Shown: positions 1,915-47,513 of the stretch, piece by piece
Numbering within the stretch: position 1 is the first letter of the stretch
Layout: each line of letters starts with the position of its first letter
Source of the DNA: Longimicrobiales bacterium
GTDB taxonomy: Bacteria > Gemmatimonadota > Gemmatimonadetes > Longimicrobiales > Gaopeijiaceae
DNA: 64,000 bases
Reading direction: 5' to 3'
Assembly: GCA_965203485.1 (NCBI GenBank)
Contig: OZ241892.1
Span: 288,001-352,000 of the forward strand
The notes under the pieces: generated by a model
Databases searched by the model: none
Told to the model about the DNA's origin: nothing
What the model saw: only the letters and a program-made list of their open reading frames with translations
Position numbers and translations under genes: made by a program

Positions 1915-1923
1915 AGTATATCA
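1915..1923 (-). promoter_or_regulatory. Extended -10 (TGaTATACT), probable leaderless promoter of the BREX operon
   Basis: TG-A-TATACT then 7 nt then ATG at 1907; no room for a Shine-Dalgarno. Confidence 0.6.
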
Positions 1924-2024
1924 CGCCCGGGGGACGGAGACGCCGGCGGCGCGGAGCCTGCCGGCGCTTCCGCCGCCGAGCTTGCCGCCGCCGATGCCGC
2001 GTCTGCCGGTTGCCGGGCCCGCCC

Positions 2025-25656: not shown

Positions 25657-28600
25657 TTACGATTCTACACCATCGATACGCGGCGTGTTTCTTGACCAGC
25701 TTCTTGCCCGCCGACCATCGGCCTCGGGCTCGATTCCCAGCCAGCAGATCAGCTCTACTTCGCTCGGCTCGATGACAGGCAGCAGCGGGGGCGGCCGCAG
25801 GGGCTCCAGTCCCGTGCTCAGGACTTGGTTGATCAAGCGCTGCGACAGTGCGGGCCCGCGAAGGTCCCTGCGTGAGCCGGATGCGGACGGGTCACCGTCT
25901 TCCGGCGGCTGATCGGCCGAGCCGAACCACTTTCGCAGCATCATCTCTTCCCGCCGTGGCCAGGGCGACTCCAGCACTTCGACGGCATGGCGCACGCGGT
26001 CGTCCGGCGCGTCGGGCGGCGGATTGTCCCGGATGAAGGCCGCGACCCGCCGGTTCAGAGGCCGAAGCCTGGGCTGGAGGTTGGCGGGGTCGGTCTCGCG
26101 CATCCACCGTTCCCAGATGTCCTGGCGGGCCAACTCCCAGAAGTCGAAGGCGCGTTCCTGGACTACCGGGGGGAACCAAGTCGGCGTGTCCTCTTCGCAC
26201 TCGACGAGACGAAGGCAGGCGCCAACCTCGGCTTCGACGGGAGCGGAGCGGTCGGGCGACCAGTCGGCGGTGGCCGGAACAAAGCGCAGATAGGTTCGCT
26301 CCAGCTTGGCGCCATGGCCGACGACGGCACAGAAGAAGATGCCCCGGCGCGCTCCCCTCGTCATCCCGGAGCCGGTCTTCCAAGGCATCTCCACGATGCG
26401 ACGGCGGTTGGTGTGGAGCGCCTTGCGCAACGTCTGGCGGTACTCTTCGCCAGTCTGGGCCGCCCCTGCCGTCCCGCCGCGCTCGAACAGCGAGGCGTCC
26501 TCTCGCAATAGCTTCTCGATTTCTTCCCGAGTCTCCGTGAAGACTTGGCCGCCGTGGGCCGCTCCTTCAATGGGAGCCGCCACGCCCACGCTGGCCGCCG
26601 CCATCGCAAGCTTCGCGAGGATGCGTTGCTCGAGGTTGAGCAACCGGTCGAGCCGATCCACGGGAAAGATCGTGCGGAGGAAGACGCGACGATGCGGGCT
26701 GCCGATCCGGTCGATGCGGCCGTGCCGCTGGACGAGACGCATCGGGTTCCACGGCATGTCGAAGTTGACTACGTGACGGCACTGCTGAAGGTTGACGCCC
26801 TCGGCCAGCACGTCGGTGGAGACCAGGATGTCGAAGCGGTCTGCATCGCTCCCGGCCGGGGCACCCATGGACAGAGGAGCGAACCCCTGGACCGCTTGCA
26901 GGCGGGACTCGGCTTCGTGGCTGGAGCCCGTTGCCGTCGCGACGCGGCCGCGGTAGGGCTCCAATCCGGGGTGCTCTTCTACGGCGTCCGCCAAGTAGCG
27001 GCGTATCCAGTCCACCGTGTCTGCGAAGGACGAGAACACCAGGACCTTGCGCTTCTGGCGCTCGTCGCCGGAGTGACTGGCCTCGGCCTCCGCCTGCGCG
27101 GCGATATCCGCCAAGGCGCCTGCCAGGGCCCTCAGCTTCGGGTCTTGCTCGATCGTGATCTTGGCCGCGTCGGCGACTAGCGCCCGGAGAAGACTGCGAT
27201 CCCGCTCCACTTGGCGCCGAAGTCGTGCAGCATCGTATAGGGCTGCGTCAGCGTAGAGTCGTTCGTCGGGGTCGCCGTCCGCCAACGCCAGCAACTCCTT
27301 GATGCCGGTCTCGTCGTCGGCCGAGAGTTCGCTGAGGAAGGTGGTGGTCACCACGTATCCGGCGTCCAACGCATCCAAGAACCTGTCGTGGGTGGCGGCC
27401 ATGCGCTCAGCGGTCGTTCTGAAGGCGTGCGCCGAGGACTCGAAGCGCTTCAGCAGGCCCGATCGCAGCAGTCCCACCACGGCGCGAGCGCGGGCGTTCT
27501 CTTCCGGGTCGCCGGTGTCCCGCAAGTATGCGGCAGGCGTGTAGCGTGCAAAGGCGATCGCTTTCCCGCCGTCGGGGTCCAGCGCCGCCTCCAAACGGTC
27601 GAAGAAGCCGGGCAGGCGCTTGTCCAGCGCATAGCGAACCGTGACCGCTCGGGGCGATGGAAACTCGATGTGGCGGGGCTGGCCGTCGGGTCCCGGTATC
27701 GTGTCGCCTGCGTAATGCTTGCGCACGAACTGGCGGGTGCGCTTGACGGTCGTGGCGTCGATGATCGGGTACAGGAGATCCGGACTCAAGTTGGACGGAT
27801 CCTCGCGCATGGCCGCCTCGAACCGGCCGCGAATCGAGAGAATCCCCCGATCCGCCAGATGCGCGTCTTGGCGAAGGAAGAAGCGGACCAGGTGGTACAG
27901 GTCCCAAAGTGAGTTGTTGACCGGCGTTGCCGTGAGCAACAGCAAGTCGCGTCGGCGTCCGAAGAGAAGACGCCTCAGCGTGGCGGCCCGCGTCGGCGCG
28001 TCCGGATTGCGGTAGTTGTGAGCTTCGTCCACGACGACGAGCTGGTACTCGTCCAACGGGCGCTGCAGATGTTGGCGGCCGGGGCGGTCGGCGTCCGGCG
28101 TCAACAGTTGCGCGTCGTTGGCCAGCTGCTCGTACGACAGGGACTCGGCGAAGAGCTGGTATTGGGACAGGAACTTCTTCCAGGTCGTGTCGCGCAACGC
28201 GGCAGGGCAGATCAAGAGCACGCGTTGCCGCCGGTCGCGGTAGAGCTGAAGGACCTCGCCTGCGATGAAGGTCTTGCCCAGCCCTACTTCGTCGGCGACG
28301 ATCGCCCCGCCCGTTGCATTGATCAAACGTAGCGCCCGCGCCACGCCGTGCTTCTGGAAGCTCGTCAGCGGCAGATTGTCGTCGGCCTCCGCGTCCTTGT
28401 CGACTTCGTCGCCGTACAGTTGCCAGAGCACGCGAAGGAACACGTCCCAAGGCGTGCGCGGCAACAAGAGTTCCTCGAAGAGGTCGACCAGGTCGTAGGG
28501 GTCGGCGTCGTCCCAGAGGTCGTCGAACCAGTGCTTGGCCTTTTCTACGGTGGCGGTGTCGTCGCGACCCAGGCTCAGTTCGCGGTTGGCGGTCAGGCCG

Positions 28601-29136
28601 GCGGCGGTCAGGTTGGAAGAACCGGCAAGGACGCCTCCCGTCAGGATGTACGCCTTGGCGTGAAGGAACGCCTTCTCGTACCGGCGAACCTCGACGTTGC
28701 CGGACTTCAGCGCCCCGACCAGCGTGGCCAAGCTGGCCCGTCCGGCGTAGGTGAACGGCAACCGGTCCCGCTCTCGCCGAAGTTCCGTCGTCATACGGGC
28801 AAGGCACTCGCCGACGCAACGCCGGTCGAAGACGGCCTTTGGTTCGCCTAGTTGTCGTCGGCAAGGGGGGCGGCCTTGCGCCGCCAAGTCGGCGCCGAGC
28901 AAGAGGCGTACCATAGGGACTGCGGCCAGCCCGTCCGCGATCTGCGCGAAGCCCGCCGGGCTGAAGTAGGCGGTGGCGATCCGCGCCTCGCTGGGCGCCG
29001 CGGTCTCCGGCGCGCTGGAGGACTCGGGAACAGGGGTTGCCACGCCCAACAACGCTCCGAGAGCGTGCGCGAGGGTGTTGCCGTCAAGGTTGTCGACGAA
29101 GGTCGGAAACTGTTCCGCCGACGCCGATGCCGTCAT
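25657..29136 (-). CDS. PLD-nuclease + SNF2-family helicase fusion
   Basis: FLHAKAY...GSSNLT (PLD); ADEVGLGKT, DEAH, TATP, LAEGVNLQ, QRHGRIDRIG. Confidence 0.9.
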   Translation of the reverse strand: MTASASAEQFPTFVDNLDGNTLAHALGALLGVATPVPESSSAPETAAPSEARIATAYFSPAGFAQIADGLAAVPMVRLLLGADLAAQGRPPCRRQLGEPKAVFDRRCVGECLARMTTELRRERDRLPFTYAGRASLATLVGALKSGNVEVRRYEKAFLHAKAYILTGGVLAGSSNLTAAGLTANRELSLGRDDTATVEKAKHWFDDLWDDADPYDLVDLFEELLLPRTPWDVFLRVLWQLYGDEVDKDAEADDNLPLTSFQKHGVARALRLINATGGAIVADEVGLGKTFIAGEVLQLYRDRRQRVLLICPAALRDTTWKKFLSQYQLFAESLSYEQLANDAQLLTPDADRPGRQHLQRPLDEYQLVVVDEAHNYRNPDAPTRAATLRRLLFGRRRDLLLLTATPVNNSLWDLYHLVRFFLRQDAHLADRGILSIRGRFEAAMREDPSNLSPDLLYPIIDATTVKRTRQFVRKHYAGDTIPGPDGQPRHIEFPSPRAVTVRYALDKRLPGFFDRLEAALDPDGGKAIAFARYTPAAYLRDTGDPEENARARAVVGLLRSGLLKRFESSAHAFRTTAERMAATHDRFLDALDAGYVVTTTFLSELSADDETGIKELLALADGDPDERLYADAALYDAARLRRQVERDRSLLRALVADAAKITIEQDPKLRALAGALADIAAQAEAEASHSGDERQKRKVLVFSSFADTVDWIRRYLADAVEEHPGLEPYRGRVATATGSSHEAESRLQAVQGFAPLSMGAPAGSDADRFDILVSTDVLAEGVNLQQCRHVVNFDMPWNPMRLVQRHGRIDRIGSPHRRVFLRTIFPVDRLDRLLNLEQRILAKLAMAAASVGVAAPIEGAAHGGQVFTETREEIEKLLREDASLFERGGTAGAAQTGEEYRQTLRKALHTNRRRIVEMPWKTGSGMTRGARRGIFFCAVVGHGAKLERTYLRFVPATADWSPDRSAPVEAEVGACLRLVECEEDTPTWFPPVVQERAFDFWELARQDIWERWMRETDPANLQPRLRPLNRRVAAFIRDNPPPDAPDDRVRHAVEVLESPWPRREEMMLRKWFGSADQPPEDGDPSASGSRRDLRGPALSQRLINQVLSTGLEPLRPPPLLPVIEPSEVELICWLGIEPEADGRRARSWSRNTPRIDGVES

Positions 29137-29630
29137 GATCCAGCCAGGACGAACCGGGCACCGGCGCGTTCCAACATGTCGAAGGGTCTGTACCACTCGA
29201 CGTTAAAGGCTTCGCACGCGTTGGGGATGGGGACGCGCCTCTTGGCCATCTTGGCAGGCTTCTCCATCGTGACGACGGCATGTCCGTGAGCCATTGCGTG
29301 AGCCACCAGGAGCGAGTCGGCCCCCGCCAGGAACGTACCTACCGCTTTGTCGAGGTACTGCTGACCTCCAGCCCATGCTCGGACTCGCGAGTGAGTTCGC
29401 TCAACCAACGGATCGGCATCCAAGAACATCTTCCTGCCCAATCGCTTGGCCCATTGCGCCAGCTGATCGTCCCCGATCGTGAGCTCCCCGAGCACGGCGC
29501 CGACGCTGTACACGAGTCCCTCGGCGTTGCCGTGCTCCAACCACTCCCAGAACCCCGGGCAGACGTTTGGTCGATAATAGTCGTTTGTAGCCGAAATGAA
29601 GACGCTTGTGTCAAGCAGATAACGCATCAA
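29133..29630 (-). CDS. DUF4411 PIN-like protein (putative toxin)
   Basis: YLLDTSVFI, PGFWEWL, ADSLLVAHA..VVTME, IPNACEAFNV. Confidence 0.85.
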   Translation of the reverse strand: MMRYLLDTSVFISATNDYYRPNVCPGFWEWLEHGNAEGLVYSVGAVLGELTIGDDQLAQWAKRLGRKMFLDADPLVERTHSRVRAWAGGQQYLDKAVGTFLAGADSLLVAHAMAHGHAVVTMEKPAKMAKRRVPIPNACEAFNVEWYRPFDMLERAGARFVLAGS

Positions 29631-30805
29631 CGCAGCCCAAGCTCGGTCTTGATCTTGTCGAACGTCTGCTGCTTCTTGATGGCCAGCAGTCGAAACGCCT
29701 CCGTATACAGCGTCCGCCCCGAAAGGGTGTCCGCAATCAGGTCGTACGCGAAACGCTCTCCAATCCGCGTCATCTGTGTTCGAAAGAAATTGCCTCCCGA
29801 ACTGGACCGTGCCTGGGCGTGCCTTCTCAATTCTCCAACGTAGGCTTCTCTAAAGATGTTGGCCGACAAGTATCCGGCATCGCGGAGACGCCGCAGAACG
29901 ACCAGCGAACTGACTTTGAAGTGGGTTGCGAGGCGTTGCAATTTTCGTTGCATCTCTTCGCTCTTCTCGTATTGCTGGCGCAAGGCGTCCAAGGGAACTA
30001 GCAGTTCCGCCGCTACCTGGTTGCACCATTTCTCGGTTCGATGGCTTGTAGCAGACTTTAGCGTAGTGTTCGATAGACCCGTGTTGCCCAGCCAGATGTG
30101 AGCCAGTTCGTGAGCGAGGGTGAACATCTGGGCCGCCTTGGCGTCGGCGCCGTTGACGAAGACGAGGGGCGCCAGTTCGTCGGATAGCGCGAAGCCCCGG
30201 AACTCGTCCACGTCCAGTGGCCGCGACGTGTTGTTTCCCACGACGCCGCTGATCATGACCAGCACGCCCTTGGCGTCGGCGCGGTCGGCGAAGCGACGGA
30301 CGGCCAAGGTCCAGTTGGCGACGTCGCGCCGGTCCTCTACGCGGAAGTCCAGCGTGGACGACATCTGCCGGGCGACCTCGGCGGGGTCGTCGTCCAAGCT
30401 GGCCGAGCCCACAAAATCGACGGGATCGTGTTCCTCTTCCAGGGCGTACTCGTGGTACCAGTCTTGCCTGTCTTGGCACAGGTGGATCGTGTCCAGCAGG
30501 TGCAGACTAGGCTTCCTGGGCTGCTTGCTGCCGACCGTGCGGAAGTCGGCGATGTCCAGCTCGTCCTTCAGGGGACCGCCGGAGAAGAGCGCTCCGAACG
30601 GCGTGTAGGTCGCCCTGGCGAAGCGCTCGAGCTGCCGGTACGTGGGCTTGAGCGTGCCGGCCTCCCACTCCCGGTACTTGGGAAAGCGCCGCTCGATCGT
30701 CTCCACGTCCTTCCCCGAGCGTTCCTGCGCCCATCGGAGCGTCGCCGGTTCTACCGAGACTCGGTAGGGACCGCGTTGCGGCGATTCGTTGATGGGCGTA
30801 GTCAT
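29627..30805 (-). CDS. XRE-HTH + ImmA/IrrE Zn-metallopeptidase
   Basis: WEAGTLKPTYRQLE, EFRGFAL, FTLAHELAH, EKWCNQVAAELL. Confidence 0.9.
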   Translation of the reverse strand: MTTPINESPQRGPYRVSVEPATLRWAQERSGKDVETIERRFPKYREWEAGTLKPTYRQLERFARATYTPFGALFSGGPLKDELDIADFRTVGSKQPRKPSLHLLDTIHLCQDRQDWYHEYALEEEHDPVDFVGSASLDDDPAEVARQMSSTLDFRVEDRRDVANWTLAVRRFADRADAKGVLVMISGVVGNNTSRPLDVDEFRGFALSDELAPLVFVNGADAKAAQMFTLAHELAHIWLGNTGLSNTTLKSATSHRTEKWCNQVAAELLVPLDALRQQYEKSEEMQRKLQRLATHFKVSSLVVLRRLRDAGYLSANIFREAYVGELRRHAQARSSSGGNFFRTQMTRIGERFAYDLIADTLSGRTLYTEAFRLLAIKKQQTFDKIKTELGLR

Positions 30806-30845
30806 CTTGGGCAGACTCTGGTGGACGGTTGGTTTGGGCGAGCCT

Positions 30846-33800
30846 TCAAGGTAACCGGCCGGGAGGGCGGAGAAAGTGCTTCAGGACGGCCTCCAGCCGG
30901 TCGTGGTAGTCCCAGCCCTCGTGGAAGGTCTCGAAGATGTGGACCAGCTGGCGCTCGGTCAGGCTGTAGCAGTGGGCGACGACAGCGTCGAGTTGGTGGA
31001 TCAGGTCCTGCTTCTCGTCCTCTGCGAGCGGTCCCCAGTCCACGCCGACCGCCTTGGCCCATTCGGCGAAGCGGTCGTCCGGGCAGGCGAGGCGGCCGGC
31101 GAGTTCGACAGTGCGCTTCCAAAGGGGGTCGTTCCGACCTGGACGGGGGATAGGGAAGGGGTTGATGACGAAGTAGGTGACGCCTGTCTCGACGAACCGG
31201 CGGGCGTACCAGTCGAGGGGGATGGAGCATAAGACGCCCAGCAGAAACGCTTGGTCCTTCTCGTCGCCGCGAGGCCAAAGGAAGTAGGGTGCCTTGTGCG
31301 CGACGAACACCTTGGGCGGAAGGAGGCAGGCGATGATGGTGCGTGGGTCCGTTGCACGCGCCACGTCTCGGAAGGCGATTCTCGGCCGGTAAACGGGCAG
31401 TGTTGATTGATCCCGAAGGTGGCCTATTGAAAATTCCTTATGCGCGCTGTCGCGTCGGTTCTTCGCGGCCCTAATCCGCTTCTTCTGCAACCAATCCAGA
31501 ACGGGAGTTGGCTTGGCCCAGGCGTAGGGCGCACCCTTGTCCGGGTCCCACAAGTCGAAGGACGCGCCCTTGTACACGGGCCAGTATTCCAACTCCAACT
31601 CGAAGCTCGTCATGTGCTTCTGTGCCGTCGCGTGGAGTTCCGTGATCGGTCGGGCACGCCATCGGACGGTTTCTCGAACACCATGAATGCCTTCTGGTTC
31701 GTGGCGTCCATCTCGCGGTCGGGACGAGCGCGCCAGCCTCTTGTGTCTGTCCCCCCTCCCCCCCCCCCCCCCCCCCCCCGCCTATAATCATGTCCTCGCG
31801 TGTGTCAAGACGCGGCGCTGCGGACATTTGGGCGAACACGCTCGCCGATTCGTCGGTCGGTAGCAGGGGCAGCGATGCAACATCGTTCCATTGCTCGATG
31901 TCGTGTCGATAGAACACTAGAGGCTCCCTGGCCACACCGGCTCTGAACGCGTGTAGGTCCGGATAAGGCCCGCTCATGCGCAACCGAGATTCTCCTTCAT
32001 CTCCACGTCGGGCTATTGCCACGAGCACAATCGTCCACTGGGGCGTGACACTCTCGAATACCCAGCCCGCACGGTTCTTGAGGGCGACCGCGTCCATAGT
32101 GCTCGCCTCGCCAAACACGGCCTTTCGAAACTCCTGCGATCCCTTGGCTTGCAACGCGCTCCTCGGCAACACGACGCCGATTCTTCCGTCATCCTCGGCT
32201 GTCAGTCGCCAGAATCGCCAGCAGAACGCCTTGTACACGTCGGCGTCGCCGGTTCCCATGCCGGGGAAGTCGCCTCCCAGCAGTGCCCTTCGCACGTCGG
32301 CGTTCTCCTTGACCTCGGCGTCCAATGCGGCGACCAAGTCGGGGCGTTCCCGGCGGAACCGCGCCTTCTCGGCCTCCTGGTCGCGCTGGGACATGCCGCG
32401 CAACCCGGGGAAATGTCGAGCCCAGAACCCATGTTCCTCCACCTTCGGCTTCTTCCACGGCGGATTGCCCAAAATCACGTCGAAGCCGGAGCGGTCGCGC
32501 AAGAAGACTTCCGGAAACGCCACCGGGAAATGCAACGCGACGAGGTCGGCCAGCTCTTGCGCCGCCACGGCCGCTTCGGGCACCGCTTCCAGGTTCTCGA
32601 TGCGATCCTCCAAGTCCTGGAACTGAAATCCCGTGATCATCTTCCTGTCCGAGATGGGCTGGGCGGTGATCAGGTCGCACAGCGCCTTGGCGGCCGCTAC
32701 CGCTTCGTTGGCCTCCTGCTGCGCCTCCCGTGCCTGGCGAACTTCGGCCACCGTGGCGTCGTTCAGGTTGGCGAGCCGGCGCAACGGCTTGGCGGCCTTG
32801 CCGAGCAACGACTCGGCGTCGCATGGAAACAGCGGAGTGTTTGTGGCGTCGAGCTTGGCCTTGATCTCGCCCACCGTTCCAATGCCGACGAGCGAGTTGC
32901 CGCGAACCAAATTGCGGTCGAGAAACGAGAGCGGGAGACCGGGCACGAACGTGTGAATCCAGACGGCCAAGCGCGCCAGCTGGACGGAAATGTTGTTCAG
33001 GTCCACGCCGTAAACGCACCGCCGGGCGATCAGGCGGCGCAACAGCTGGCCGTCTTCAATCAGTGACGCGCCCACCGCATCGTCGTCGTCCAATGCTGTT
33101 CGAGCGGCTTGGCGAAGCCCAGCCAGTTCGTTGCGCACGCCCGGCAGATCGCGACCGACTAGGAAGTCGGCCATGCCCTTCTCGATGCGGTCGATGGCAC
33201 CGACCAGGAAATGGCCCGATCCCATGGCGATGTCGGCGACCCGGAAGTCGAAGAAGCTCTCGGCGGCGGTGGCGTCGTCCATGGCGTCCAAGCGTCGGAA
33301 GTGGTCCTTCAGCGCGGGCGCCAGCGCCTTGTCCAGCAAGTGCTCCACGGCGAAGGACTTCGTGTAGTAGCTGCCCGTGAACTTGCGAACGCCGGAACGG
33401 TTGTGGAGGTAGGTCTCTCCCCTCTTGACAACGACTCGCGCATTCGGCTTGGCGGGCATGTAGGTGCCCTTGGCGTCCACCGTCAAGTCCGCGGTTGCAA
33501 CGGCCAGCTCGGATTCCAGCAAGCCCTCGTAAATCGTGCCGAACTCGCGCACGCCCAGAGATCTGAAGTCCACCGGACCTAGTCCGCCTTCGTGCGTCTC
33601 GATGATCAGGAGGTGACGCAAGGCGGGCTCGAAGGACTCGTTGGACAGCGAGACGCTGGCGAGTTCCGCGCCCACATCCGACACTTCGGGATCATTGGCG
33701 AAGAGTGCGCCGTCGTATTCGGGCACACCCCACTCGGGATTGCCGGCGGCCACTGCTTCGCACAAGCGGGCCACTTCCTGCCAATGAGCGTGGCCCGGAG

Positions 33801-35016
33801 CCACGGGCGTGTTGTCCCGCGCTTGCTTGGCCAGCTCCTGCGCCTTCTGCTTGAGCGACCGGCGACGGTAGGCGTCGTTGGTTCGATAGGGAAGCAGGTC
33901 GCAATCCTCCGCGTACGCGATGAAGAGAAGGCGAAACAGCACCGTCAGAGCCATGTCGTAGGTACGGGCCAGCTCCTGCGCCGTCGTGGAGCCGAGCGGC
34001 CTTGCGTCAGCGATGCCCCGGGCGAGCTTGGGCACCACTTGGTCGTAGATGCGTTCGCGCAACCGCTCGGCCAAGTCGCCGGCGAAGCGCCGAGACTCGT
34101 CGAGGATTTGGTCCAAGCTGCCGTTTGGCGCCAGCGCGTCGGCCGAGAAGATCAGCCACAAGTACGCCAAGTCGGAGTCGGCCAACAGCGGCGCTTGGCA
34201 CTCCACGTAGGTTTCGGTGCGGCCGCGCCTGCCGACGCCGCGGTCGGTGGCCGTCGAGTAGAGGCGCAAGCGGTTGCCTTGGACCATCACCACCCAGGAC
34301 AGGTCTTCGTCGTCGGCCTTCTTGAGCGCGTAGGTGACCGGCGACAGGCTGTTGAAGCGCGGATTGCCGGCCTCGGCCGATTCACGATCGCGCAAGAGGA
34401 CGGCCAAGGCCGTGCGTCGTCGGCCGTCGTCGCCGCTCGTAAGGAGGTGCGTCAGGTTGTCCAGCGGGACGACGTGGAAGCCCAGCGCGCCCAGCAGGCC
34501 GTGCGCGTGTGCGCCGACCGCCTTCTTGGCCTTCTTGCCGGCGGCGGCCCAGTCGGTTCGGTTGCGAACGCCGTGACGCAGGTTGTGGAGGGCCAGCAGG
34601 CCCTCGTTGTGGATGCCCGGCAGATCCGTCTCCAGCGACGGCAGGGCTTGCGAGAGGAAGCGCAGAGCCGAGTGACGGTCGGGTTGTGCCAGAGCTTCGC
34701 GGCAAATCCGCTCGACCCGTTCGGCGTCCAAGCGAAGTCGGACGGCGGGCTTCTCGCCGGACGGGCCGCAGAGGGCGGCGCCCTCGGGGTGAAGAACCAC
34801 CAGGAGCACGGGCGCGGCACGTCCCGCACGCCGGATCTTGTGAGCACCGGCGACGGCTGATCGGGACGGGATGGTGGGTGTGCGGGCGACCACCACTTCC
34901 AAGCCGTGGTCGCCCGGCCCGACGAATAGGCCGCCGAATCGAGAGCCGAGACGCGGGTCCGGCGACCAGGGACGCCGGACGAATTCAGGGAGGAAGTCCA
35001 AGGATGAGGCGTTCAC
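30846..35016 (-). CDS. Large N6-adenine DNA methyltransferase (Eco57I/type IIL-like), frameshifted at poly-G tract
   Basis: GSYYT, DIAMGSGHFL, GVDLN, ILGNPPW. The C-terminal part (ORF 30846-31613: AFRDVARATDPRT) joins in frame if the G22 tract loses one G. GTG start inferred. Confidence 0.85.
31751..31779. repeat. Homopolymer C6-T-C22 (G22-A-G6 on coding strand)
   Basis: Direct reading. Confidence 0.9.
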
Positions 35017-35042
35017 GGTGCCATCATCCGGTCTCTTCTGAA

Positions 35043-35693
35043 TTATTGTTGACAAGCCCCATCTCCTTCTTGGCCCATGAGGAGCAGCTGGCCGTCGTCC
35101 CGCCGCCGCGTCACGCCGATGAACGCGTTCAGCTTGGACGCGCTCGGAAACACCCACTTGCCGAGCCCCCACGATCCGCCCGCGTCTTGTCCCTTGGGCG
35201 AGATGCCGACGCTTCTGAACAAGCCCCAGAAGTGGTTGTTCTTGGCCCGCGGGTCGTTGGCGCGGACATCGCCTCGCAAGCCTATTGTGCCGAAGTCCTC
35301 CACGATCAGAAACGGCATGGCGCGGTCGAACAGCGACTTGCGCTCCTCAAGATCGCTATTGTCTCCGCGCGCGGTGCGCTGGGCATCCACCACTGCGCAG
35401 AGGTGCGGCTTCAGGCCCGTCAAGTAGCACGTTGCCCGACTGGGTTCCAGCGCGTCGTCCGAGCCGCTGATCACAAAGCGGACCCGCACGGGTCCGTCCC
35501 CAGCTCTGGCGTCCAGCGAATTCTGAATCGACTCCCTGACGAAGCGCTTGGGCAGGTCGGGACTGAAGAACTCGCCTTGCACGGGGTTCTCGTTGATCTC
35601 CGACGGCGACATGACGCGGAAGCGCCAATGGGGCGCGCGCTGGGCCTCGGACGGCTTACGACGATCGAGAGGCGCCCGGGACTGAGGCATCAT
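35043..35693 (-). pseudogene. Truncated GHKL (HATPase-like) protein, N-terminal domain only
   Basis: RESIQNSLDA, IVEDFGTIGL, GGSWGLGK; ends abruptly after LLLMGQ. Confidence 0.6.
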
Positions 35694-35793
35694 GTATCGG
35701 CGGTCGCGCATTCGGTCTTGTCTCCCATGCATTCGGCCGTTGGCAAGCGAGAGACGACCGGGTTCCACGGGCCGCATCTTCCCGGCGGCAAGA

Positions 35794-37377
35794 TCACATC
35801 CCCCAAACGGCAATCTCTGCGCCCGTCCGGGTGCTTCGCCGCTCGCGGAACACCTTGTCGTCCCAGTTGCGATCCTCGCTCCGGTCGAAGACGACCAAAT
35901 GGCCCCCCTCCGCACCGTAGCGGTCCATGTAGGCCGCCGTCTGCTCTACACCGTCGGCCACCGTGCGCTCCAAGCCCCGTCTCTCGTGGTGGACCTTGCA
36001 CTCCACCACGTACTTGCGCACCCGCTCGCCCTGCGGCCACGCGACCAGCACGTCGGTGCGCCCGCCGCCCAGCGCGTACTCGCGGTCGATCCGCCCGCCG
36101 CTGTTGACGACCCGCTGCAGGAACGCCTGCAAGAGCAACTGCGGTCCCGCCTCCCTGAACCCGTAGCGTTCCGTCCAGTGCTCGGAGTTCTCGCGGTAGA
36201 ACTCCTGGAACGCTCCCAACAACTTGTCCAAGCGCAGAGCGCCATCGGCGTCCACGTACCAAGCCGGGTCGTGCGGCAGATCGTCTTGGGCAAGCCACGT
36301 CAGCTCCCTGGGGACGACTTCGGCGTAGATCGGGTTCGCCATGCGGATCGGGGGATCGCGGGCGATCAGCCCCAGGTCCCGGACGTACTCCACGTCGCGC
36401 GCGGTGTAGCTGGACTCGGGGGCGCCGGCGAGGATCGGCTCGACCACTCGCCACACCCGGTCCTCCTGAAGCTTGTCCGTCAGCTGGTCCAGGTGAGTGT
36501 CGCGGCGCCGGATCAGCGCTTCGCGGGCGTCCATCACGTCGTCCTCGGCCACCGGCCGCGACCGGTCCGCCGCCAAGTCGCCGCGGAAGCAGGTCTCGTA
36601 GGCGAGCGCGTTGACCAGCCAGGGCTGGCCCTGGGTCTGCGTCCAAACCGCCTCCAGCGCGCCGTCGGCGAACGGTTGCCCCGTCTCGTCGGTGTGCTGA
36701 CCAAGGAGCTCGTGCACCTCGTCCCGAGAAAAGTCGCCCAGGCGCAGCGACTCCGCCTTGACGTTGAACGCGCTGCCGCCGGCCACCATGGTATTGGCGG
36801 AGGCAGAATGAATGCGGTAGTCCCGCACGTCCCGCACGCCGCACAGGACCACGCTCTGCGGGAAGCCTTGGGGACGCATGTCGTAGCCGGCCCGCAACTG
36901 CCGCAGCACGGCCAGCAGCGAGTCGCCCACCAGCGCGTCGATCTCGTCGATCAGCAGCACCAGCGGATCCGGCGCGGCGCGGGCCCAGCGGCCGAGCGCG
37001 TCGCGCAGGGCGCTGTGGCCGCCCGCCTTGGCCAGAACGGCCGGCCATGCCTCTTCCAGGTAGTCGTCCCCAAGCGTGTCCCGCGCCCGTCCGGCCAGCT
37101 CGTTGAGCACTGTGCGGATCGCTGCTTCGACGTCTTCGCGCGCCGTCTGCGCCCCCTCCACGTTGACGTATACGCAACGGCAACCGCCCTCCGCGTTCAG
37201 CAGGTCCTTGAGCGCGAGGAGAGCGGACGTCTTGCCTGTCTGCCGGGGCGCGTGAAGCACAAAGTACTGCTTGCGGTCGATCAGTTGCCGGAGTTCGGCG
37301 AGACCGAGCCTGGCCAGCGGCGGAATGCGGTAGTGGTCCTCCGCCACCACGGGGCCGGACGTGTTGAAGCGGCGCAT
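35794..37377 (-). CDS. AAA-family ATPase with PD-(D/E)XK-like C-terminus (paralogue of 9932-11542)
   Basis: MRRFNTSGP, HAPRQTGKTS, LLIDEID, VVECK. Confidence 0.85.
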   Translation of the reverse strand: MRRFNTSGPVVAEDHYRIPPLARLGLAELRQLIDRKQYFVLHAPRQTGKTSALLALKDLLNAEGGCRCVYVNVEGAQTAREDVEAAIRTVLNELAGRARDTLGDDYLEEAWPAVLAKAGGHSALRDALGRWARAAPDPLVLLIDEIDALVGDSLLAVLRQLRAGYDMRPQGFPQSVVLCGVRDVRDYRIHSASANTMVAGGSAFNVKAESLRLGDFSRDEVHELLGQHTDETGQPFADGALEAVWTQTQGQPWLVNALAYETCFRGDLAADRSRPVAEDDVMDAREALIRRRDTHLDQLTDKLQEDRVWRVVEPILAGAPESSYTARDVEYVRDLGLIARDPPIRMANPIYAEVVPRELTWLAQDDLPHDPAWYVDADGALRLDKLLGAFQEFYRENSEHWTERYGFREAGPQLLLQAFLQRVVNSGGRIDREYALGGGRTDVLVAWPQGERVRKYVVECKVHHERRGLERTVADGVEQTAAYMDRYGAEGGHLVVFDRSEDRNWDDKVFRERRSTRTGAEIAVWGM

Positions 37378-37446
37378 TCCCAACGATAACCCAGCGGCCC
37401 TGCTCGGCCCCGCTTCTGCTGGCGCTGGCGACGATCGAGGGAGGCG

Positions 37447-38736
37447 CTAGGCCGGGGCTCCGTTGCTCGCGCCCGCGCAGTGCGCTTGGTGGGCGGGCAG
37501 AACGACCGTGAAGTAAGTGCGCCCCTCGTCGAACTCGAAGCGGGGCGGGGGCGAGCCGTTGCGGGCCATGGCCTCGTGGATCTTGTCGAGGCCGGTCAGG
37601 CGGGCTTCCGCCAGCTCCAGGTCCTTCAGGAACTCGCCGACGCGCCGGTTGCGGGCGGGGATGTTTGGCTTGGGCGCTCCTGGCTCGAAGTGCTCCGGCT
37701 CGATGCCCGGCAACGGGCCCGGATAGCTGGTGACCGTCATGCGTTCGGGGTAGACGTAGACCTTGACGGGTTCCGGCGCATCGGCCTCGTAGCTGCGGTG
37801 GTAGACGGCGTTGACGAGGGCCTCGCGAACCGCCGCGGCCGGCCAGCGGGCGGTGCGCCCGGCGTAGGGCGTGTCGGCGCGCTTTTCCACGCGAACGTCC
37901 GACAGGCTCTCCAGGTGCGCGAGGCAGCGCCGCACTTGGTCGGCCAAGCCGCCGCGAAAGACGGTTTCGGCCAACGTGTCGCCGGCCGGGCCGTCGGGGA
38001 AGTGGGCCAGCTCGGTCGTCGCGCCGCGAAACCATCGCGAGGGGTCGTTCGAGAAGAAGAGAATTCCCACGTTGCGGGGCGTGTCGTGGTCGTTCGCGCG
38101 GGCGGCGATGCGCATTCGGCGGAAGATTTCGCGCGGGTCGGCCAGCTCTCGCAAGCCGCTCCCCACGTCCCGGAGGAACTCGCGCACCAGGGCTTCGCGG
38201 AGATCGTCCATGCTGGCGCCGAGCGCGCGGCGGTCGTCCCAGGGCGTTCTCGCGGTTTGGCGCATCAGGGCCGGCAGAAGACCGTTGGCCGCGGCGTCCA
38301 CCGTCTCGGCGCCCAGGCGAATCCAGAACTTCCGCCCGCGCTTTCGTCCGGCGGGCGCGCTGTGCGGCCGCGTCTCGCTCGCCGGCGCCCAAATCACGAG
38401 CACGTTGCGCCCGTCGGCCGTCTCGGGCGACACCACGGGCTGGTAGGCCGGGTCGATTCGGTTGCAGGCGCCTCGAATCCACTTGGCCGCCGCTTGCATC
38501 TCGCAGTCCGAGAGGCCGCGCGGGGGCAGCACGGCGCGTCCGCCCTGCTCGGCCACGCCCAGCACGAGGTAGCCGCCGTTCAGGTGAAGATGGTCGTTCG
38601 CAAAGGCGCAGATGGTGGCCAGCGCTTGCAGGCCCGTCGTCTCCGGGTCCCACCGCGCCTTCAGCTCGAGGCGGGCCGACTCGGTCCGGCGTCCGCCCAG
38701 CAGAGCGTGCAAGTTGGTGGGGAGAAGCGCGCTCAC
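37447..38736 (-). CDS. Schlafen/AlbA_2 + HATPase_c_4 domain protein
   Basis: ESARLELK..W, TICAFAN..GGYLVLGV, REALVNAVYHRSY, RNRRVGEFLKDL. Confidence 0.85.
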   Translation of the reverse strand: MSALLPTNLHALLGGRRTESARLELKARWDPETTGLQALATICAFANDHLHLNGGYLVLGVAEQGGRAVLPPRGLSDCEMQAAAKWIRGACNRIDPAYQPVVSPETADGRNVLVIWAPASETRPHSAPAGRKRGRKFWIRLGAETVDAAANGLLPALMRQTARTPWDDRRALGASMDDLREALVREFLRDVGSGLRELADPREIFRRMRIAARANDHDTPRNVGILFFSNDPSRWFRGATTELAHFPDGPAGDTLAETVFRGGLADQVRRCLAHLESLSDVRVEKRADTPYAGRTARWPAAAVREALVNAVYHRSYEADAPEPVKVYVYPERMTVTSYPGPLPGIEPEHFEPGAPKPNIPARNRRVGEFLKDLELAEARLTGLDKIHEAMARNGSPPPRFEFDEGRTYFTVVLPAHQAHCAGASNGAPA

Positions 38737-38950
38737 TTCGGCCGGCCGGCCCGGGCCACCTGGGCGGAACCGGTTGCCATGGCGGCCGGCCGCACGGCGC
38801 CGACGAGCAACACGGCGCCCAAGCTGGCGGCGAGCGGACGAAGTCCTGCTTCTCGGGGCATCTCGGGAGCCTTTGGTGCGCCACGGGCGGCGGGCCGGGG
38901 GTGGACGCGGCCTTCGGACGGACTGAACGGGGCGGCGGGACCCCCGAACG

Positions 38951-39961
38951 CTACTGCTCCGGATTGCCCGTTGCCAGACCGGCCAGCCGGCGCGCGATGT
39001 CGCGGACCCGGCGCCGCAAGTCCTCCGGCCCTTCCACGACGGCTTCTCCTCCGTAGCGAAGCACGTGGCGGGCCAGCCAATCGGGGTCTGCGACGCTGTG
39101 GCACACGGTTACGCTGCCGTCGCCGTTGTCTTCCATGGAAATGCTGCGGTACGACGCCCTCTCTCTGATCCAGCGACCGACGCGGGGCGAATAGCGCACG
39201 TAGGCCCGGCGGCTCACCGACGCGAAGAGCAGCTCGTCGAGCCCGCCGTCCAGGTATGGGCCGGGGTCGAAGTCGCTCGGGATGTCGAACGTCCCCTCGT
39301 CCAGCGACGCGTGAAGAATCCTGTCCATCCTGAAGATTCGCATGCCTTGCGATACGACGCAGTGGCCGACGACGTACCAAGTCTCGTCCGAGAAGACGAC
39401 CAGGTAAGGATGGACGACGCGGCGCGACTCCTCGCCGGCGGCCAGCTTCAGATAGCCCATGACGCATGGACGGCGAGCGTAGGCGGCGGCCACGACCGTC
39501 CTGTGCACCTCCGTGCGGCCCATGCGACGGTCGGAGAGCGTCAGGCCCGGAGCCGAGCCCAGAGCCTCGCCGGGGTCCCGGCCGCCGGCAACGAGAGACG
39601 GGCCGAGGCGAAGCAGGTCCTCCGCGTCCGGCGCCCGCGATCCTTGGGCGGGCTCGCCCCGCAAGGCCAGCGCGAGGCAAAGGTGTTCGTGCCCCGATAG
39701 GCGAAGGGGGCGGTCCAGAAAGCTGGTGTGCTCTACCCGGACGCGGTCGTTGTCGAGGAACACGAGAATGTCTCCCGGCCAGCCGCCGGGCCGGTAGTCT
39801 CCTCTCGTGGTGAGTTCCCGGAGGTCGTCGAGGACGCCCGCTTCGCAGGTCCCGAGGTTGCGGGCCAACGACGCGACCTCCGCGCCGCCCTCCCGGCTTG
39901 CCGCCGCGATGATGTGCGCCAGCCGCTCGAAGCGGGTGCGGGCGGAGGCGGCCTCAGCCAC
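38951..39961 (-). CDS. pafC: PafC-like WYL-domain transcriptional regulator
   Basis: HTH, LDRPLRLS..E...L, RVVHPY...WYVVGHC...RIFRMDRI, WCX (LRYGGEAVVEGP). Confidence 0.8.
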   Translation of the reverse strand: MAEAASARTRFERLAHIIAAASREGGAEVASLARNLGTCEAGVLDDLRELTTRGDYRPGGWPGDILVFLDNDRVRVEHTSFLDRPLRLSGHEHLCLALALRGEPAQGSRAPDAEDLLRLGPSLVAGGRDPGEALGSAPGLTLSDRRMGRTEVHRTVVAAAYARRPCVMGYLKLAAGEESRRVVHPYLVVFSDETWYVVGHCVVSQGMRIFRMDRILHASLDEGTFDIPSDFDPGPYLDGGLDELLFASVSRRAYVRYSPRVGRWIRERASYRSISMEDNGDGSVTVCHSVADPDWLARHVLRYGGEAVVEGPEDLRRRVRDIARRLAGLATGNPEQ

Positions 39962-41066
39962 TGCGGGAAGCGGAAGTTCCGCCGTGAGCTTCGGCGACGG
40001 CGGCGGCCATCTCTTGGAAGCGCCGCCGAAAGGGACCGGGCTTCTCGATTCGGGCCTGTCCCGCGAGACCCAGCGTCCAGCGCGCGAGCCGGTCGCGGTC
40101 CCGCACGCGAAACCGGCGCAGCGAAGAGCCGTCGTCGCGCTCCAGCACGAGTTCGCCGTGGCCGTTGCGGTCCGCCCACTCGGAGCACGGGAAGTCGAAG
40201 TGCACGATCGCTTCTTCTTCGGCCGCCTCGGGTCCCATCTCCCAGACCTGCCTGTTCGCGTAGCCGCTCAGGTCGAAGTCGGCGGGAAGCTCGAAGTCGG
40301 GCGCACCGGGCGATTTCTGGTTGGCGCGCACGGTGCTCATTCGGCCGACGCGAAACACGCGCACGTCGTCGCGGACTTCGTCGTGTCCCACCAAGTACCA
40401 ACGTCCGAGCTCGAAGAGGAGCCCGTAGGGCCGAACCCGCCGCTCGATCTCGCCGGCGCGCGTCATCGCCTTGTAGCTGAAGGACAGCTTCTTCTTGCGC
40501 GAAACCGCGTCGAAGAGACGAGCGAGCGCCCTCGATGCGCGTTCGGCTTCGGCCGATGCCGCATACCGCACCGGAGAGTCGCCCGATCCGCCGGGCATGA
40601 GGTCGAACGACAGCTTCCGAAAGGCCGACTCCGCATGGCTGGCCAGGGGAAAGCCGGGCAACGTCGCGAGTTCGCGAAGCCCGCCCAAGGCCTGGAACGC
40701 CTCGTCGGGCGACACCACGGCGGTTCCGGGCGCTCTGCAGGCCGGGTGGCCCCGCGGCTTGGGCCCGCGCTTGGCGACTCGCAGCCGGGGCAGGTAGAAG
40801 TCGCGGGCCAGCCGATAGCCGGCCGCGTCGCTCGATTCGCCGCGAACGGGACCGACGACCGTTTCGATGGCTATCCCCATGGCCCGCAACTCGTCCTTGT
40901 CCCGCTCGAACATGCGGCTCGCCGCGGCCCTTTCTTGCGGCGCTCCGTTCAGTCCACGCGAGTAGGCCGGGAGTTCCCGCCAAAGAACTTCCTTGCTCAC
41001 CGGAAATCTCCGGGAGGCGAGGAAGGCCACGAGATCGATCCAGCGCTGAAGCTTGGTTGGTTCCAT
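39954..41066 (-). CDS. pafB: PafB-like WYL-domain transcriptional regulator
   Basis: KLQRWIDLV, RMFERDKDELRAMGI, GRWYLVGHD..RDDVRVFRVGR. Confidence 0.85.
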   Translation of the reverse strand: MEPTKLQRWIDLVAFLASRRFPVSKEVLWRELPAYSRGLNGAPQERAAASRMFERDKDELRAMGIAIETVVGPVRGESSDAAGYRLARDFYLPRLRVAKRGPKPRGHPACRAPGTAVVSPDEAFQALGGLRELATLPGFPLASHAESAFRKLSFDLMPGGSGDSPVRYAASAEAERASRALARLFDAVSRKKKLSFSYKAMTRAGEIERRVRPYGLLFELGRWYLVGHDEVRDDVRVFRVGRMSTVRANQKSPGAPDFELPADFDLSGYANRQVWEMGPEAAEEEAIVHFDFPCSEWADRNGHGELVLERDDGSSLRRFRVRDRDRLARWTLGLAGQARIEKPGPFRRRFQEMAAAVAEAHGGTSASRSG

Positions 41067-41133
41067 GTGGGCGGTGCGTCTCGCGGAGGTGGTGCGCCTC
41101 CGGGCAAAGCCATTGCAGGCAGGGCAACCTTCA

Positions 41134-41155
41134 AAGATAAGGACCGCCTGTGACA
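41134..41155 (-). promoter_or_regulatory. PafBC/RecA-NDp-type promoter facing pafB-pafC
   Basis: TGTCA-cag-8nt(gcggtcct)-TATCTT. Confidence 0.6.
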
Positions 41156-41170
41156 CCCGTCCGGCGGACG

Positions 41171-41256
41171 CGGCCTCACGCAGGAGGAGGCGGGCCGGCG
41201 CCCGTGCAGCTCCCGGACGCAACTCGAGAACACGGCCTCACGCGGGAGGAGGCGGG
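41171..41256. repeat. 24-bp direct repeat x2 (cggcctcacgc[a/g]ggaggaggcggg), 62-bp period
   Basis: Copies at 41171-41194 and 41233-41256. Confidence 0.8.
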
Positions 41257-41571
41257 ACTGGTCCGTGTCCACGGTCCGCCGAGCCCGGCGTGCGTTGGCC
41301 GCTTCACGCGGAGACAGCCTTAAGGCGCGCAACCGCGTTGGACGGTCGAGACTCCGCTTCATGTAGGCGGGTGTCCCGTGCGCGACCAGCTTCACCGCCG
41401 CGTCGCCTCCGCTTCATGAGCGCGGGGATGCCGGACTCGGCCTCGCCGCGACCAACCCGGGCCGACCGCGGCTTCGCACGTGCGGGTCTCGCCCCGTCTC
41501 CGCGCCGCGCGTGCCAAGTGGCCGTGCCGGCCCGGCTCCTGGGCCCCGAGTCGTGCGGGACCAAGACCCGC

Positions 41572-41593
41572 TGTCATACCCCCCCGATACGTT
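41572..41593 (+). promoter_or_regulatory. PafBC/RecA-NDp-type promoter facing lipoprotein/M48 genes
   Basis: TGTCA-tac-8nt(ccccccga)-TACGTT. Confidence 0.6.
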
Positions 41594-41750
41594 GCCTGCC
41601 GCGTTTTCGCGACCGGTGCGCCTCCCGGCCCCGGTTCGCCTCGTTCGGTGTTGCGCAGCCGTTTGCGGAGGCCGAGCGGATGCGGGACCGCCGAGCGGAG
41701 CCCGGTCGCGAGCAACTCCATCCCAACACATCCCAAGGAGGGAAAGGGAA

Positions 41751-42098
41751 TTGAACAGGCTTGCTAGAATCAGAATCGTTTCCAGGATGTGCGCGCTGGG
41801 CGCCGCCGTGGCGCTGGCCGGATGCTGGGACGAAGCCGAAGTGCGGGGCCGGTGGACGGGAGCCGACGAGCGCCCCAACATCGGAGTCCGGGTCGTGGAC
41901 AGCGGGGAAGTGCACGAGATCAGATACGTCGACGACGAGGGCCGCTTCAGCTTCAAGATCGCGTGCCCGGGCCACTACTCGTTCGTGGTGCACACCAACC
42001 CGCCGATTGTCGCGTTCCTTTGGACCGAACGCACGTTCACGGGCTGCAAGGCCAACGGAGCCGAGAAGCTGAAGTCGCTGCCCGAGTCGGCCGGGTAG
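41751..42098 (+). CDS. Small hypothetical lipoprotein
   Basis: RBS aaggag/aaggga, TTG start, LAGC lipobox. Confidence 0.6.
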   Translation: MNRLARIRIVSRMCALGAAVALAGCWDEAEVRGRWTGADERPNIGVRVVDSGEVHEIRYVDDEGRFSFKIACPGHYSFVVHTNPPIVAFLWTERTFTGCKANGAEKLKSLPESAG

Positions 42099-42231
42099 GC
42101 CCCGTCGATCACGCCGTGCTTCTATCGGTTGCAGGTGCGGCGGCGCGATCTCGCCTTCCGGCAACCATGTCCGGGCGCGCCCTGGTCCAGACGTGGCAAC
42201 AGATCCCGACGGGGCACGAGGAGACGCAAAC

Positions 42232-43224
42232 ATGAAGGCAACTGGCAGGTCGGCCGGCTTGGCCGCCGCCGCGTTCCTTGCCGGGTGCGCTGGCGCGATG
42301 TACAAGCCAATGGCGGTGGCGGACAGGGCAATCGAGCAACGCATCCTGACCGAGCGCAACAGCGACTACTGGGCGATGCTGGCCCGTCTCGACGGCATTT
42401 CTTGGCAGGTGCGCCGCGCGAACCGCCATCTCTGCACCGGGAAGATCGCGCACGAAGTGGGCGTGCGCGTCGCCGACCTCGGCGGATACGTCCGCAACGA
42501 ACCCCTGTTGCACTTGCCACGCGACGAGCGGGGAACATACACGGTTCAATCCGTGACTCCCGGTTCTCCCGGCCACCGAGACGGCATCCAGCCCGGCGAT
42601 GTGCTCACGAAGGAGGAGCTGGAGGGCCATGCGCGCCAAGAAGTGTGCATGGGTAGCGTGCTCCTTCTCCGACCGCGGGATGTTGAAGCCGCCGGCTCGC
42701 TGGAAGCATACACGAACGGCCAGCAAGTCGCACTTACGACGGCTGTGGTGGAGTGGCTCGACACGGACGACAGAATCGCGGCGGTAGTGGCGCACGAGAC
42801 GGCTCACATTGCCATGAGGCACATCGACAAGCGCCGGAACAACGCGGCCGCCGGAGCCGTTCTGGGCGCGGTGACCGATGGGCTCTTGTGCGGAGCGCTG
42901 GGTGGTCTCTCGTGCTATACCGCGTCGAACGCTGGAGCTGGTGCGCGGGCCGGTGCGGCGGCGTACTCGGTGGACTTCGAACGCGAGGCGGACTACGTGG
43001 GGATGTACATGGCGTTCAACGCGGGCTTCGACACGTCGGTGTGGTCCGACCTTTTCTTGGACATTGGGGTGCGCTTCGGCCAGGGATTCGGCTCGACGCA
43101 CCCCTCCAACCCCGATCGGGCGGCGAGCATGGTGGTTTGGCATGAGAACATCCAGGCCGAACGCGAGGCCGCCGATGCTCGCGGGCTGGCGGAGGAACCA
43201 CTCTTTCCCAAGCCGAATCGGTGA
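42232..43224 (+). CDS. M48 family metallopeptidase with PDZ domain, lipoprotein
   Basis: LAGC; PGSPG..GIQPGDV; VAHETAH; EREADYVG; STHP. Confidence 0.85.
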   Translation: MKATGRSAGLAAAAFLAGCAGAMYKPMAVADRAIEQRILTERNSDYWAMLARLDGISWQVRRANRHLCTGKIAHEVGVRVADLGGYVRNEPLLHLPRDERGTYTVQSVTPGSPGHRDGIQPGDVLTKEELEGHARQEVCMGSVLLLRPRDVEAAGSLEAYTNGQQVALTTAVVEWLDTDDRIAAVVAHETAHIAMRHIDKRRNNAAAGAVLGAVTDGLLCGALGGLSCYTASNAGAGARAGAAAYSVDFEREADYVGMYMAFNAGFDTSVWSDLFLDIGVRFGQGFGSTHPSNPDRAASMVVWHENIQAEREAADARGLAEEPLFPKPNR

Positions 43225-43661
43225 GTGGTCGGCCGCCGGGCGCCGCGGCCCGGCGGCCGGTTCCCAGGGGCGTTTCGGCGCAGGGCGCACGCGGTGCCGG
43301 GCAGCCGAGCCAAGCGCGGCCGCGTCGAGAGGCCGCGTGGGAGCGCGCCGCTCCGGCGTCCGGGTGCGGTTCGCTGGGGCGCCCACTTGCGCGGCTCGGG
43401 CTTGTCGGCCACCTTAACGAAGCCGTCGTCGAGCCGGCGGGAGCGAGGCGCCACCTAAGCGGCGTCTCCACGCGCACGCTCTGCCGACGGCCACGCGCTT
43501 GGCTGGCGCAAGGATCGGCGACCGGGCGGGCGCACTGAATCGCCGCAATGCGGCCATGCTTCGAGACTGGCGTTGTGGCGAGGCGCGCCCCGGTCTCGGC
43601 GCATGACCCCGCCGGAGTGCGCATGGCCGCGCACACGAACCCTTTGAAGCGAGAACAGAAC

Positions 43662-47202: not shown

Positions 47203-47513
47203 GAACTCGAACCCTCTCCGGGAATCGAGCCGCTCTCCCGAGCGAACCAGGCCGCGGCTTTTTTTAGAATGTCGCGCTCGAGGCGCAACTGCTTGTTCTC
47301 CCGCTTCAGGCGGCGCAACTCGTCCCGCTCGCGCGTCGTCGTCCCGTCGTCGCGACGGCCCTCGTCGAGATCGGCCTGCTCGACCCAGTTGCGGATCGTC
47401 GGCGCCGACGGCTCGAACTCACGCGCCAGCGCCTCCGGCGACCGGCCCGAACGCGCCAGATCCACCATTCGCCGCCGGTACTCCAGCGGGTACTGCTTGC
47501 GTTTCTTCGGCAT
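47199..47513 (-). CDS. IS3 transposase OrfA; A7G -1 frameshift signal near 47258-47265
   Basis: HTH, ELRRLKRENKQL..ERDILKKAAAWFA; CTAAAAAAAG. Confidence 0.95.
   Translation of the reverse strand: MPKKRKQYPLEYRRRMVDLARSGRSPEALAREFEPSAPTIRNWVEQADLDEGRRDDGTTTRERDELRRLKRENKQLRLERDILKKAAAWFARESGSIPGEGSSS

Follow-up and report, generated by a model that had tools for sequence, protein, structure and literature searches.

Does a PafBC-type transcription activator operate outside Actinobacteria, and if so, which genes does it serve? In the available portions of the PafBC literature, PafBC is treated as actinobacterial and tied to the Pup-proteasome. The question is raised by a 64,000-nt stretch of contig OZ241892.1 (assembly GCA_965203485.1, positions 288,001 to 352,000), hereafter the window, from a Longimicrobiales bacterium of the phylum Gemmatimonadota; coordinates below are those of the window unless another contig handle is given. 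An earlier note, made from the letters of the sequence, had pointed to an overlapping pafB-like/pafC-like gene pair beside two divergent motifs that resemble mycobacterial PafBC promoters, and had proposed an autoregulated PafBC-type regulon. Our sequence comparisons indicate that the pair is probably a heterodimeric sigma adaptor activated by single-stranded DNA (ssDNA). It would use -26/-10 promoters, feed back on itself and act on defence, nuclease and exported-protein targets, with recA mostly outside the regulon and the regulon small in this genome.

The pafB gene (39954..41066, minus strand) encodes a 370-amino-acid (aa) protein with a winged helix-turn-helix (wHTH), a WYL and a WCX domain (Pfam WYL and WCX). 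Its stop is overlapped by pafC (38951..39961, minus strand), whose 336-aa product has the order HTH_PafC-WYL-WCX (Pfam HTH_PafC, E 3.9e-13). The best match of PafB in the Protein Data Bank (PDB) is Mycobacterium smegmatis PafB (7p5x_AY, E 1.3e-20), and PafC matches the Arthrobacter aurescens PafBC (6sj9, E 4e-25) and M. smegmatis PafC (7p5x_AX, E 2e-17). A homologue search returned 535 matches, and most of the 80 loci kept bear Gemmatimonadota titles. In a quick tree of 50 chosen rows, in which Actinobacteria contribute five B and four C rows and further WYL families are absent, the B and C copies separate with actinobacterial copies on each side, so that each of the two proteins groups with actinobacterial PafB or PafC. 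The Gemmatimonadota copies form one group within each of B and C (support 99), and the host copies fall, like those from its family and its order, among records that bear the Longimicrobiales label. The two genes are therefore wHTH-WYL-WCX paralogues lying in tandem, one an orthologue of PafB and the other of PafC; judged by domains, structural matches, key residues and tree, the pair is the true counterpart of PafB and PafC. Homologous loci and gene tree also agree on a host outside Actinobacteria, as had been suspected, and the gene tree puts it in Gemmatimonadota, probably in Longimicrobiales. PafB is present in 28/61 near relatives and in 57/201 genomes of a phylum sample, and pafC lies downstream of pafB in 91/106 loci. 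The absence of pafA next to the pair, part of the original description, extends to the whole genome: a family search found no Pup ligase in this 95% complete assembly, a search made in this genome and not in its relatives. The one proteasome-family match, a 172-aa protein, is HslV as read from its sequence. The third WYL match of the genome is a stand-alone 102-aa WYL-domain protein without a helix-turn-helix (49294-49602, minus strand).

Residues named in PMC8635444 and PMC11804915 were mapped onto the host proteins through PDB alignments, and their conservation was counted in 87 PafB and 76 PafC orthologues. In the available parts of these papers they are K5, R8, R46, R50, K52, R56 and Y76, as well as R181, Y196, R211 and R214, of PafB, and R201/R204 of PafC. 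The GTC-reading pair R46/R50 corresponds to R51 (kept in 86/87 orthologues) and R55 (87/87) of the host PafB, and the equivalents of K5, R8, K52, R56 and Y76 are K5 (86/87), R8 (87/87), K57 (87/87), R61 (81/87) and Y84 (87/87). Among the ssDNA-binding equivalents in the WYL domain, R209, Y224 and R242 are found in 87/87 orthologues, R239 in 83/87, R236 in 75/87 and R232 in 51/87. The equivalents of PafB R181, Y196, R211 and R214 are kept in 83-87 of 87, and PafC R211/R214, which correspond to PafC R201/R204, are invariant (76/76). The pafB product is predicted to read GTC at -26 and to sense ssDNA, and the pafC product is predicted to be the sigma-contacting subunit. The pair modelled as a heterodimer reached 0.69, compared with 0.00 for the strongest of three controls (116/157 solved and 2/215 mismatched pairs reach the mark for this score), with at least 83% contact agreement between runs and a partner predicted local distance difference test (pLDDT) value of at least 74. 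Because a like complex has already been solved, this model, possibly a memory of solved PafBC, speaks for likeness and does not demonstrate binding.

The motif facing pafB, TGTCA-CAG-N8-TATCTT, lies at 41134..41155 on the minus strand (-26 TGTCA, -10 TATCTT; start predicted near 41127), and the motif facing a lipoprotein gene, TGTCA-TAC-N8-TACGTT, at 41572..41593 on the plus strand (-26 TGTCA, -10 TACGTT; start predicted near 41600). Both stand where the earlier note had placed them, with the same spacing, and its failure to see further matches in other upstream regions holds for the whole window: TGTCA-N11-TAnnnT occurs there exactly twice (0.12 expected; 1/100 shuffles reached two). With a matrix trained without this genome, no site in the genome outscores the plus-strand one (25.2 bits), and that of pafB comes third (20.8 bits).

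That the two sites are real follows from their conservation beside orthologous pairs. From 109 loci, 106 had a pafB start, 102 remained after removal of duplicates, and 94 after removal of this genome and of seven with actinobacterial or planctomycete titles. The strict mycobacterial pattern, fixed beforehand, was found upstream of pafB in 20/94 relatives at spacer 11 and in 0-2 at spacers 6-19; the relaxed pattern YGTCR-N11-YAnnnT was found in 42/94 at spacer 11 and in 0-6 at other spacers. A de novo motif search returned an asymmetric motif, ctGTCacaCCcccg..tAtnT, before pafB in about 58%, and, in-sample, a site above 14 bits lies within 450 nt of pafB in 54/94 (2-8 with shifted spacers). 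Across 229 sites, ATG follows the hexamer by 6 nt in 18, and by any other gap up to 37 in at most 9, an arrangement typical of leaderless transcripts. In 61 genomes, 100 matches to a tighter pattern were counted, versus 27 when the spacer was one base longer. Six phylum matches that fall within one conserved coding gene were set aside as chance. These sequences combine a GTC element and a -10 element at the fixed PafBC spacing, as a hybrid promoter would, and pafBC is likely autoregulated, in line with the original proposal. Up to 3 kb before pafB, no motif was found at six actinobacterial loci and one planctomycete locus, a small sample.

WYL repressors of the BrxR/CapW type are encoded by a single homodimeric gene and have an inverted-repeat operator. 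Here we found a two-gene pair and an asymmetric de novo motif. It is conceivable that PafBC represses itself and the neighbouring defence genes in the manner of BrxR or CapW and is released by ssDNA, as WYL repressors typically target themselves and lie near defence genes (PMC9122601 and PMC11662680, in the parts available) and a defence cluster lies after pafC. We regard this as very improbable, however: the site is bipartite, asymmetric and at a fixed spacing to the -10 element, promoter calling in 37000-44000 gave none of the sigma-70 type with -35 and -10 elements, and the known proteins nearest to the pair are those of PafBC, an activator.

If the pair is an activator, its reach in this genome can be judged from the remaining strong sites. 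Intergenic sites above 17 bits number three (0-1 with shifted spacers), namely the two locus sites and one (C1:1153086) that precedes an apparent remnant of an exported-protein gene; a 15.7-bit site (C1:1960217) faces a secreted-protein gene. ARPP-1, AddAB, TM0106, DUF2779, PEGA, RecC and GmrS were not found in the genome with one to three queries each, and the vWA, DEDDh and HsdM relatives that it holds are without a site. The regulon here appears, from these scans, to be reduced to pafBC, the lipoprotein gene and two or three weaker candidates. Two other high-scoring matches (C1:1811355 and C1:3431176) lie in or against genes and were put down to chance. A site before brxF (~1939) scored 12.8 bits and then below 7 with a retrained matrix, and is not claimed; brxF (1305-1939, minus strand) is the first gene of a BREX-like operon; its ATG lies 7 nt past a -10 hexamer, upstream of which a weak GTC element stands at the PafBC distance. 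A nurA-herA-sbcD-sbcC-like run (C1:1956802-1964806; nurA and herA recognised by eye) is broken by an opposite-strand secreted-protein gene with a motif of its own.

The classical DNA-damage genes fare differently from what the RecA-NDp label of the earlier note had implied: the promoter type and the PafBC orthology stood, while the mycobacterial damage-gene content did not. Host recA, two lexA, two ssb, two uvrA and uvrB reach at most 5.4 bits, versus 20.8 and 25.2 at the locus sites, so that no enrichment before recA, uvr or ssb is seen in this genome; with sbcD and nurA included, the highest score is 5.8 bits. The uvr and ssb genes were scored in this genome alone. For recA, 30 of 62 matches were scored in relatives, and one of the 30 (G050, 20.0 bits), or 1/16 PafB carriers, has an upstream site; a second recA site, in G044, was found through the motif. 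A different element, the direct repeat TTCG-N7-TTCG, precedes recA in 21/30 relatives (L170-L199; 0-2 at other spacers) and occurs in the host at recA (C1:1323495-1323520) and at the first lexA gene (C1:978444-978465), with no genome-wide enrichment in the host. It is a candidate LexA box of the group.

Which genes, then, carry the motif in the phylum? Extra sites near pafBC precede vWA, ARPP-1, AddB-like, TM0106, DUF2779, DEDDh, HD, PEGA, Big_2 and outer-membrane barrel genes. Sixty regions, chosen mostly for their strong look out of the 100 tighter-pattern matches in 61 genomes, add cas3, cas4-cas1, csb1, HsdM, an HsdR-like gene and GmrSD. A tally of 61 unselected carrier sites, made by hand and partly from likeness to scanned proteins, gave pafB 6, vWA 5, ARPP-1 3, ADP-ribosylglycohydrolase 1, nucleases or end-processing 6, cas4-cas1 2 and exported proteins 9; recA, uvr, ssb and ruv were not recognised behind any of them. 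The cas operons were scored over the 300 nt before 34 leaders from a family search, omitting five found by motif, those lacking upstream sequence and five solo cas1-like loci. Sites above 11 bits, 56-125 nt from the start, were found before 6/14 leaders in PafB carriers versus 1/20 in others (shifted controls 2/56 and 2/80; all host genes 30/2696), a contrast whose Fisher value of 0.012 overstates it because the genomes are kin. Among the phylum-wide targets, nucleases, defence operons, vWA/ARPP-1 genes and exported proteins appear to predominate. Since the sites stand before nucleases, cas/restriction and exported genes but seldom before recA, the role of the alarm likely lies more in defence than in classical DNA repair. 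In type I-G loci (L219:2684-2784; L348:2659, 10656), the interference module and the adaptation module (cas4-cas1) each have a motif copy of their own upstream, back to back in G019.

An ordinary PafBC DNA-damage regulon, on whose promoter defence cassettes hitch-hike and whose weaker repair-gene sites were missed, would account for the sites before AddB-like, RecC and TM0106 genes and for the recA sites of G044 and G050; end resection is also a known PafBC target in the portion of PMC8223512 available. Such a regulon is nevertheless unlikely in view of the rarity of recA sites among the relatives, the low scores of the host repair genes, recA through nurA, and the lack of recA, uvr, ssb or ruv behind the unselected carrier sites.

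A defence-weighted PafBC regulon with these promoters also has several observations to its disadvantage. The genome scan for TGTCR-N11-TAnnnT (3.56 Mb) returned background frequency (20 matches at spacer 11 vs 10-27 at spacers 5-21), and the matrix gave no excess either (272 sites above 9 bits vs 167-292 with shifted spacers); the significance of the two sites thus rests on their conservation in relatives. The two cas leaders of this genome and both tested in relative G001 are without a site, and above 18 bits the cas contrast shrinks to 3/14 carriers vs 1/20 others. Of the unselected carrier sites, 29/61 fall within genes, have unclear targets or belong to other kinds. In mycobacteria, too, AddAB/RecC are targets of PafBC (PMC8223512), so that part of the regulon would be ordinary repair. 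The genomes are kin, and counts across them are not independent. The PafB wing tryptophan W70 is W in 2/87 orthologues and the PafC D62 column is mostly hydrophobic or variable, from which it follows that the polymerase contacts differ from the solved complex. Finally, five genomes searched for WYL genes yielded none, and three of these (G018, G026 and G038; 94-99% complete) nonetheless hold strong sites, before cas3, addB, exonuclease, csb1 and ARPP-1.

These orphan sites are what would be seen if the promoter class were read without PafBC, for example by one of four SigA-like or many extracytoplasmic function (ECF) sigma factors, with pafBC merely one member. The host genome has 18 sigma region-4 matches, and a still tighter pattern found 44 sites in the 144 genomes without PafB of the 201-genome sample (31 in a reversed control). 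The same pattern, however, gave 61 matches vs 5 in the 57 PafB carriers, an excess over control of 56 vs 13. The spacing equals the 22-nt PafBC motif of PMC8635444 (available part) and is too tight for a -35 contact, the arginines that read GTC hardly vary, and the orphan sites fit loss, transfer or incomplete assembly. We consider a PafBC-free promoter quite improbable. The four SigA-like factors are short (284-324 aa) and two are in tandem (C1:49923-51859, 1691877-1692731, 2739807-2740679); these best SigA-like proteins diverge from solved SigA after the RERIRQ stretch, and no long RpoD is among the top sigma matches.

Viral contigs (L368-L492) hold at least 125 TGTCACACCCC-N5-TAnnnT stretches, versus 75 with a spacer one longer, and ATG lies 6-7 nt past the hexamer in 20/109 viral sites. 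One viral site precedes the RecE-like exonuclease region of Gordonia phage Yvonnetastic, and, of three phage loci compared with annotated phages, two matched none. From this pattern, phages may use the host PafBC.

The gene faced by the plus-strand site encodes a predicted 114-aa lipoprotein (41754..42098, plus strand; lipobox LAGC) without a Pfam match. Relative G001 has a 59% identical orthologue preceded by a 14.4-bit counterpart of the site; in relative G002 both site and gene are missing at the corresponding place. Atlas feature matches, which serve as a lead only, link the protein to PF13620 clusters (0.93; 154/256 features common), and it is likely a CarboxypepD_reg/PEGA-like beta-sandwich and the target of the plus-strand promoter. 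CarboxypepD_reg and PEGA belong to one clan, so the lipoprotein fits the exported-protein target class. It is followed after 134 nt by an M48 peptidase gene with a PDZ-like insert (42232..43224, plus strand; Pfam M48, E 3.4e-16). No terminator was called in this gap, and the two genes are possibly co-transcribed; G001 lacks the M48 gene at the corresponding position. Between the two promoters lie degenerate repeat units (41168..41442), spaced by about 55-62 nt and with look-alikes elsewhere in the genome. In G001 the two sites are 42 nt apart, and the repeat stretch is likely a later insertion between the promoters.

On the other side, a same-strand cluster (25657..38736, minus strand) follows pafC and encodes an AlbA_2-HATPase, an AAA ATPase, a PDC-M33A-like piece, a type IIG restriction-methylase in two frames, an IrrE-like protein, a 164-aa protein and an SNF2 helicase. 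No terminator was called between pafC and the next gene, a similar gene order begins in G001 and G002, and a matrix scan found no motif of the cluster's own; the cluster is a possible read-through target. The restriction-methylase (30846-35172, minus strand) is split over two overlapping frames, with the short PDC-M33A-like piece preceding it. A two-gene insertion sequence (46354-47513 and 47921-49042) adjoins a C5 DNA methylase and has a second copy at C1:1811523-1814990.

By analogy with mycobacteria, ssDNA arising through chromosome damage or phage invasion would bind the WYL domains, the PafB helix-turn-helix would read the GTC triplet through R51/R55, PafC would bridge to region 4 of a SigA-like sigma factor, and the polymerase would start 6-7 nt past TAnnnT. 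One promoter would drive pafBC itself and the other the lipoprotein gene, in a circuit likely to have positive feedback, unlike that of mycobacteria. The predicted phylum-wide targets are mainly vWA, ARPP-1 and ADP-ribosylglycohydrolase genes, nucleases for DNA ends and others (AddB-like, RecC, TM0106, DEDDh and HNH), some cas/restriction operons and exported proteins; recA would mostly be left to a different repeat, probably LexA-bound. A bolder reading, which we advance tentatively and rate somewhat below even, is that sigma adaptation in Gemmatimonadota is an inducible immune switch. A self-amplifying PafBC would sense phage ssDNA and turn on CRISPR-Cas, restriction, DNA-end nucleases, a vWA/ARPP-1/ADP-ribosylhydrolase module and envelope lipoproteins, LexA would keep recA, and cassettes would carry the promoter into any PafBC-bearing host. 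A further phylum that keeps the DNA code but differs in polymerase contacts, self-feedback and targets would show which parts of the mechanism are general. It also offers a guilt-by-promoter list of unstudied genes (vWA, ARPP-1, TM0106, PEGA lipoproteins), probably switched on alongside CRISPR and restriction.

To our knowledge, sigma adaptation has been demonstrated in mycobacteria only. A search covering few subscription papers found no literature linking PafBC to Gemmatimonadota; the available part of PMC6789036 describes PafBC-like architectures in several phyla and mentions no such regulon. The M. smegmatis and A. aurescens PafBC (PDB 7p5x, 9fnd, 6sj9; PMC8635444, PMC11804915, available parts) share with the host pair the adjacent overlapping genes, the domain order, the DNA-reading and ssDNA-binding residues and a 22-nt promoter in which GTC and TAnnnT are the same distance apart. 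Three of their features, the Pup-proteasome link, the W70 and D62 contacts and the control of recA/uvr, were not found here. The host pair also differs in its phylum, in the site before its own genes, in its consensus (TGTCAcACC here, tGTCgg there), in leaving recA mostly outside the regulon and in having far fewer sites than the ~150 genes reported there. Indeed, in the portion of PMC8223512 available, mycobacterial PafBC controls more than 150 genes, including recA, uvrABC, recBCD, adnAB and ruv. As for feedback, pafA mRNA of M. smegmatis was the same after deletion of pafBC, and no increase in PafBC levels was seen, with no sign of self-induction in the part of PMC5656591 available. The main text of PMC8682763 mentions neither CRISPR nor phage nor restriction, and in the available part of PMC8151990 CRISPR appears only as CRISPR interference (CRISPRi); this comparison of targets rests on main texts and not on the full M. 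smegmatis regulon table, so that defence genes there are possible.

DriD of Caulobacter, BrxR and CapW are likewise wHTH-WYL-WCX ssDNA sensors, but, in the sources as far as available, they are homodimers without a -26/-10 hybrid promoter, and BrxR and CapW repress. DdaA of Moraxellaceae (PMC12392091, available part) is a WYL activator that links DNA damage to defence, with a motif before CRISPR-Cas and restriction systems; it differs in acting as one protein, from a site that lies ~50 bp before the start, in not using sigma adaptation, as the paper states, and in also running core repair genes. The host system would thus be PafBC by descent and promoter type, and in its predicted targets most like DdaA.

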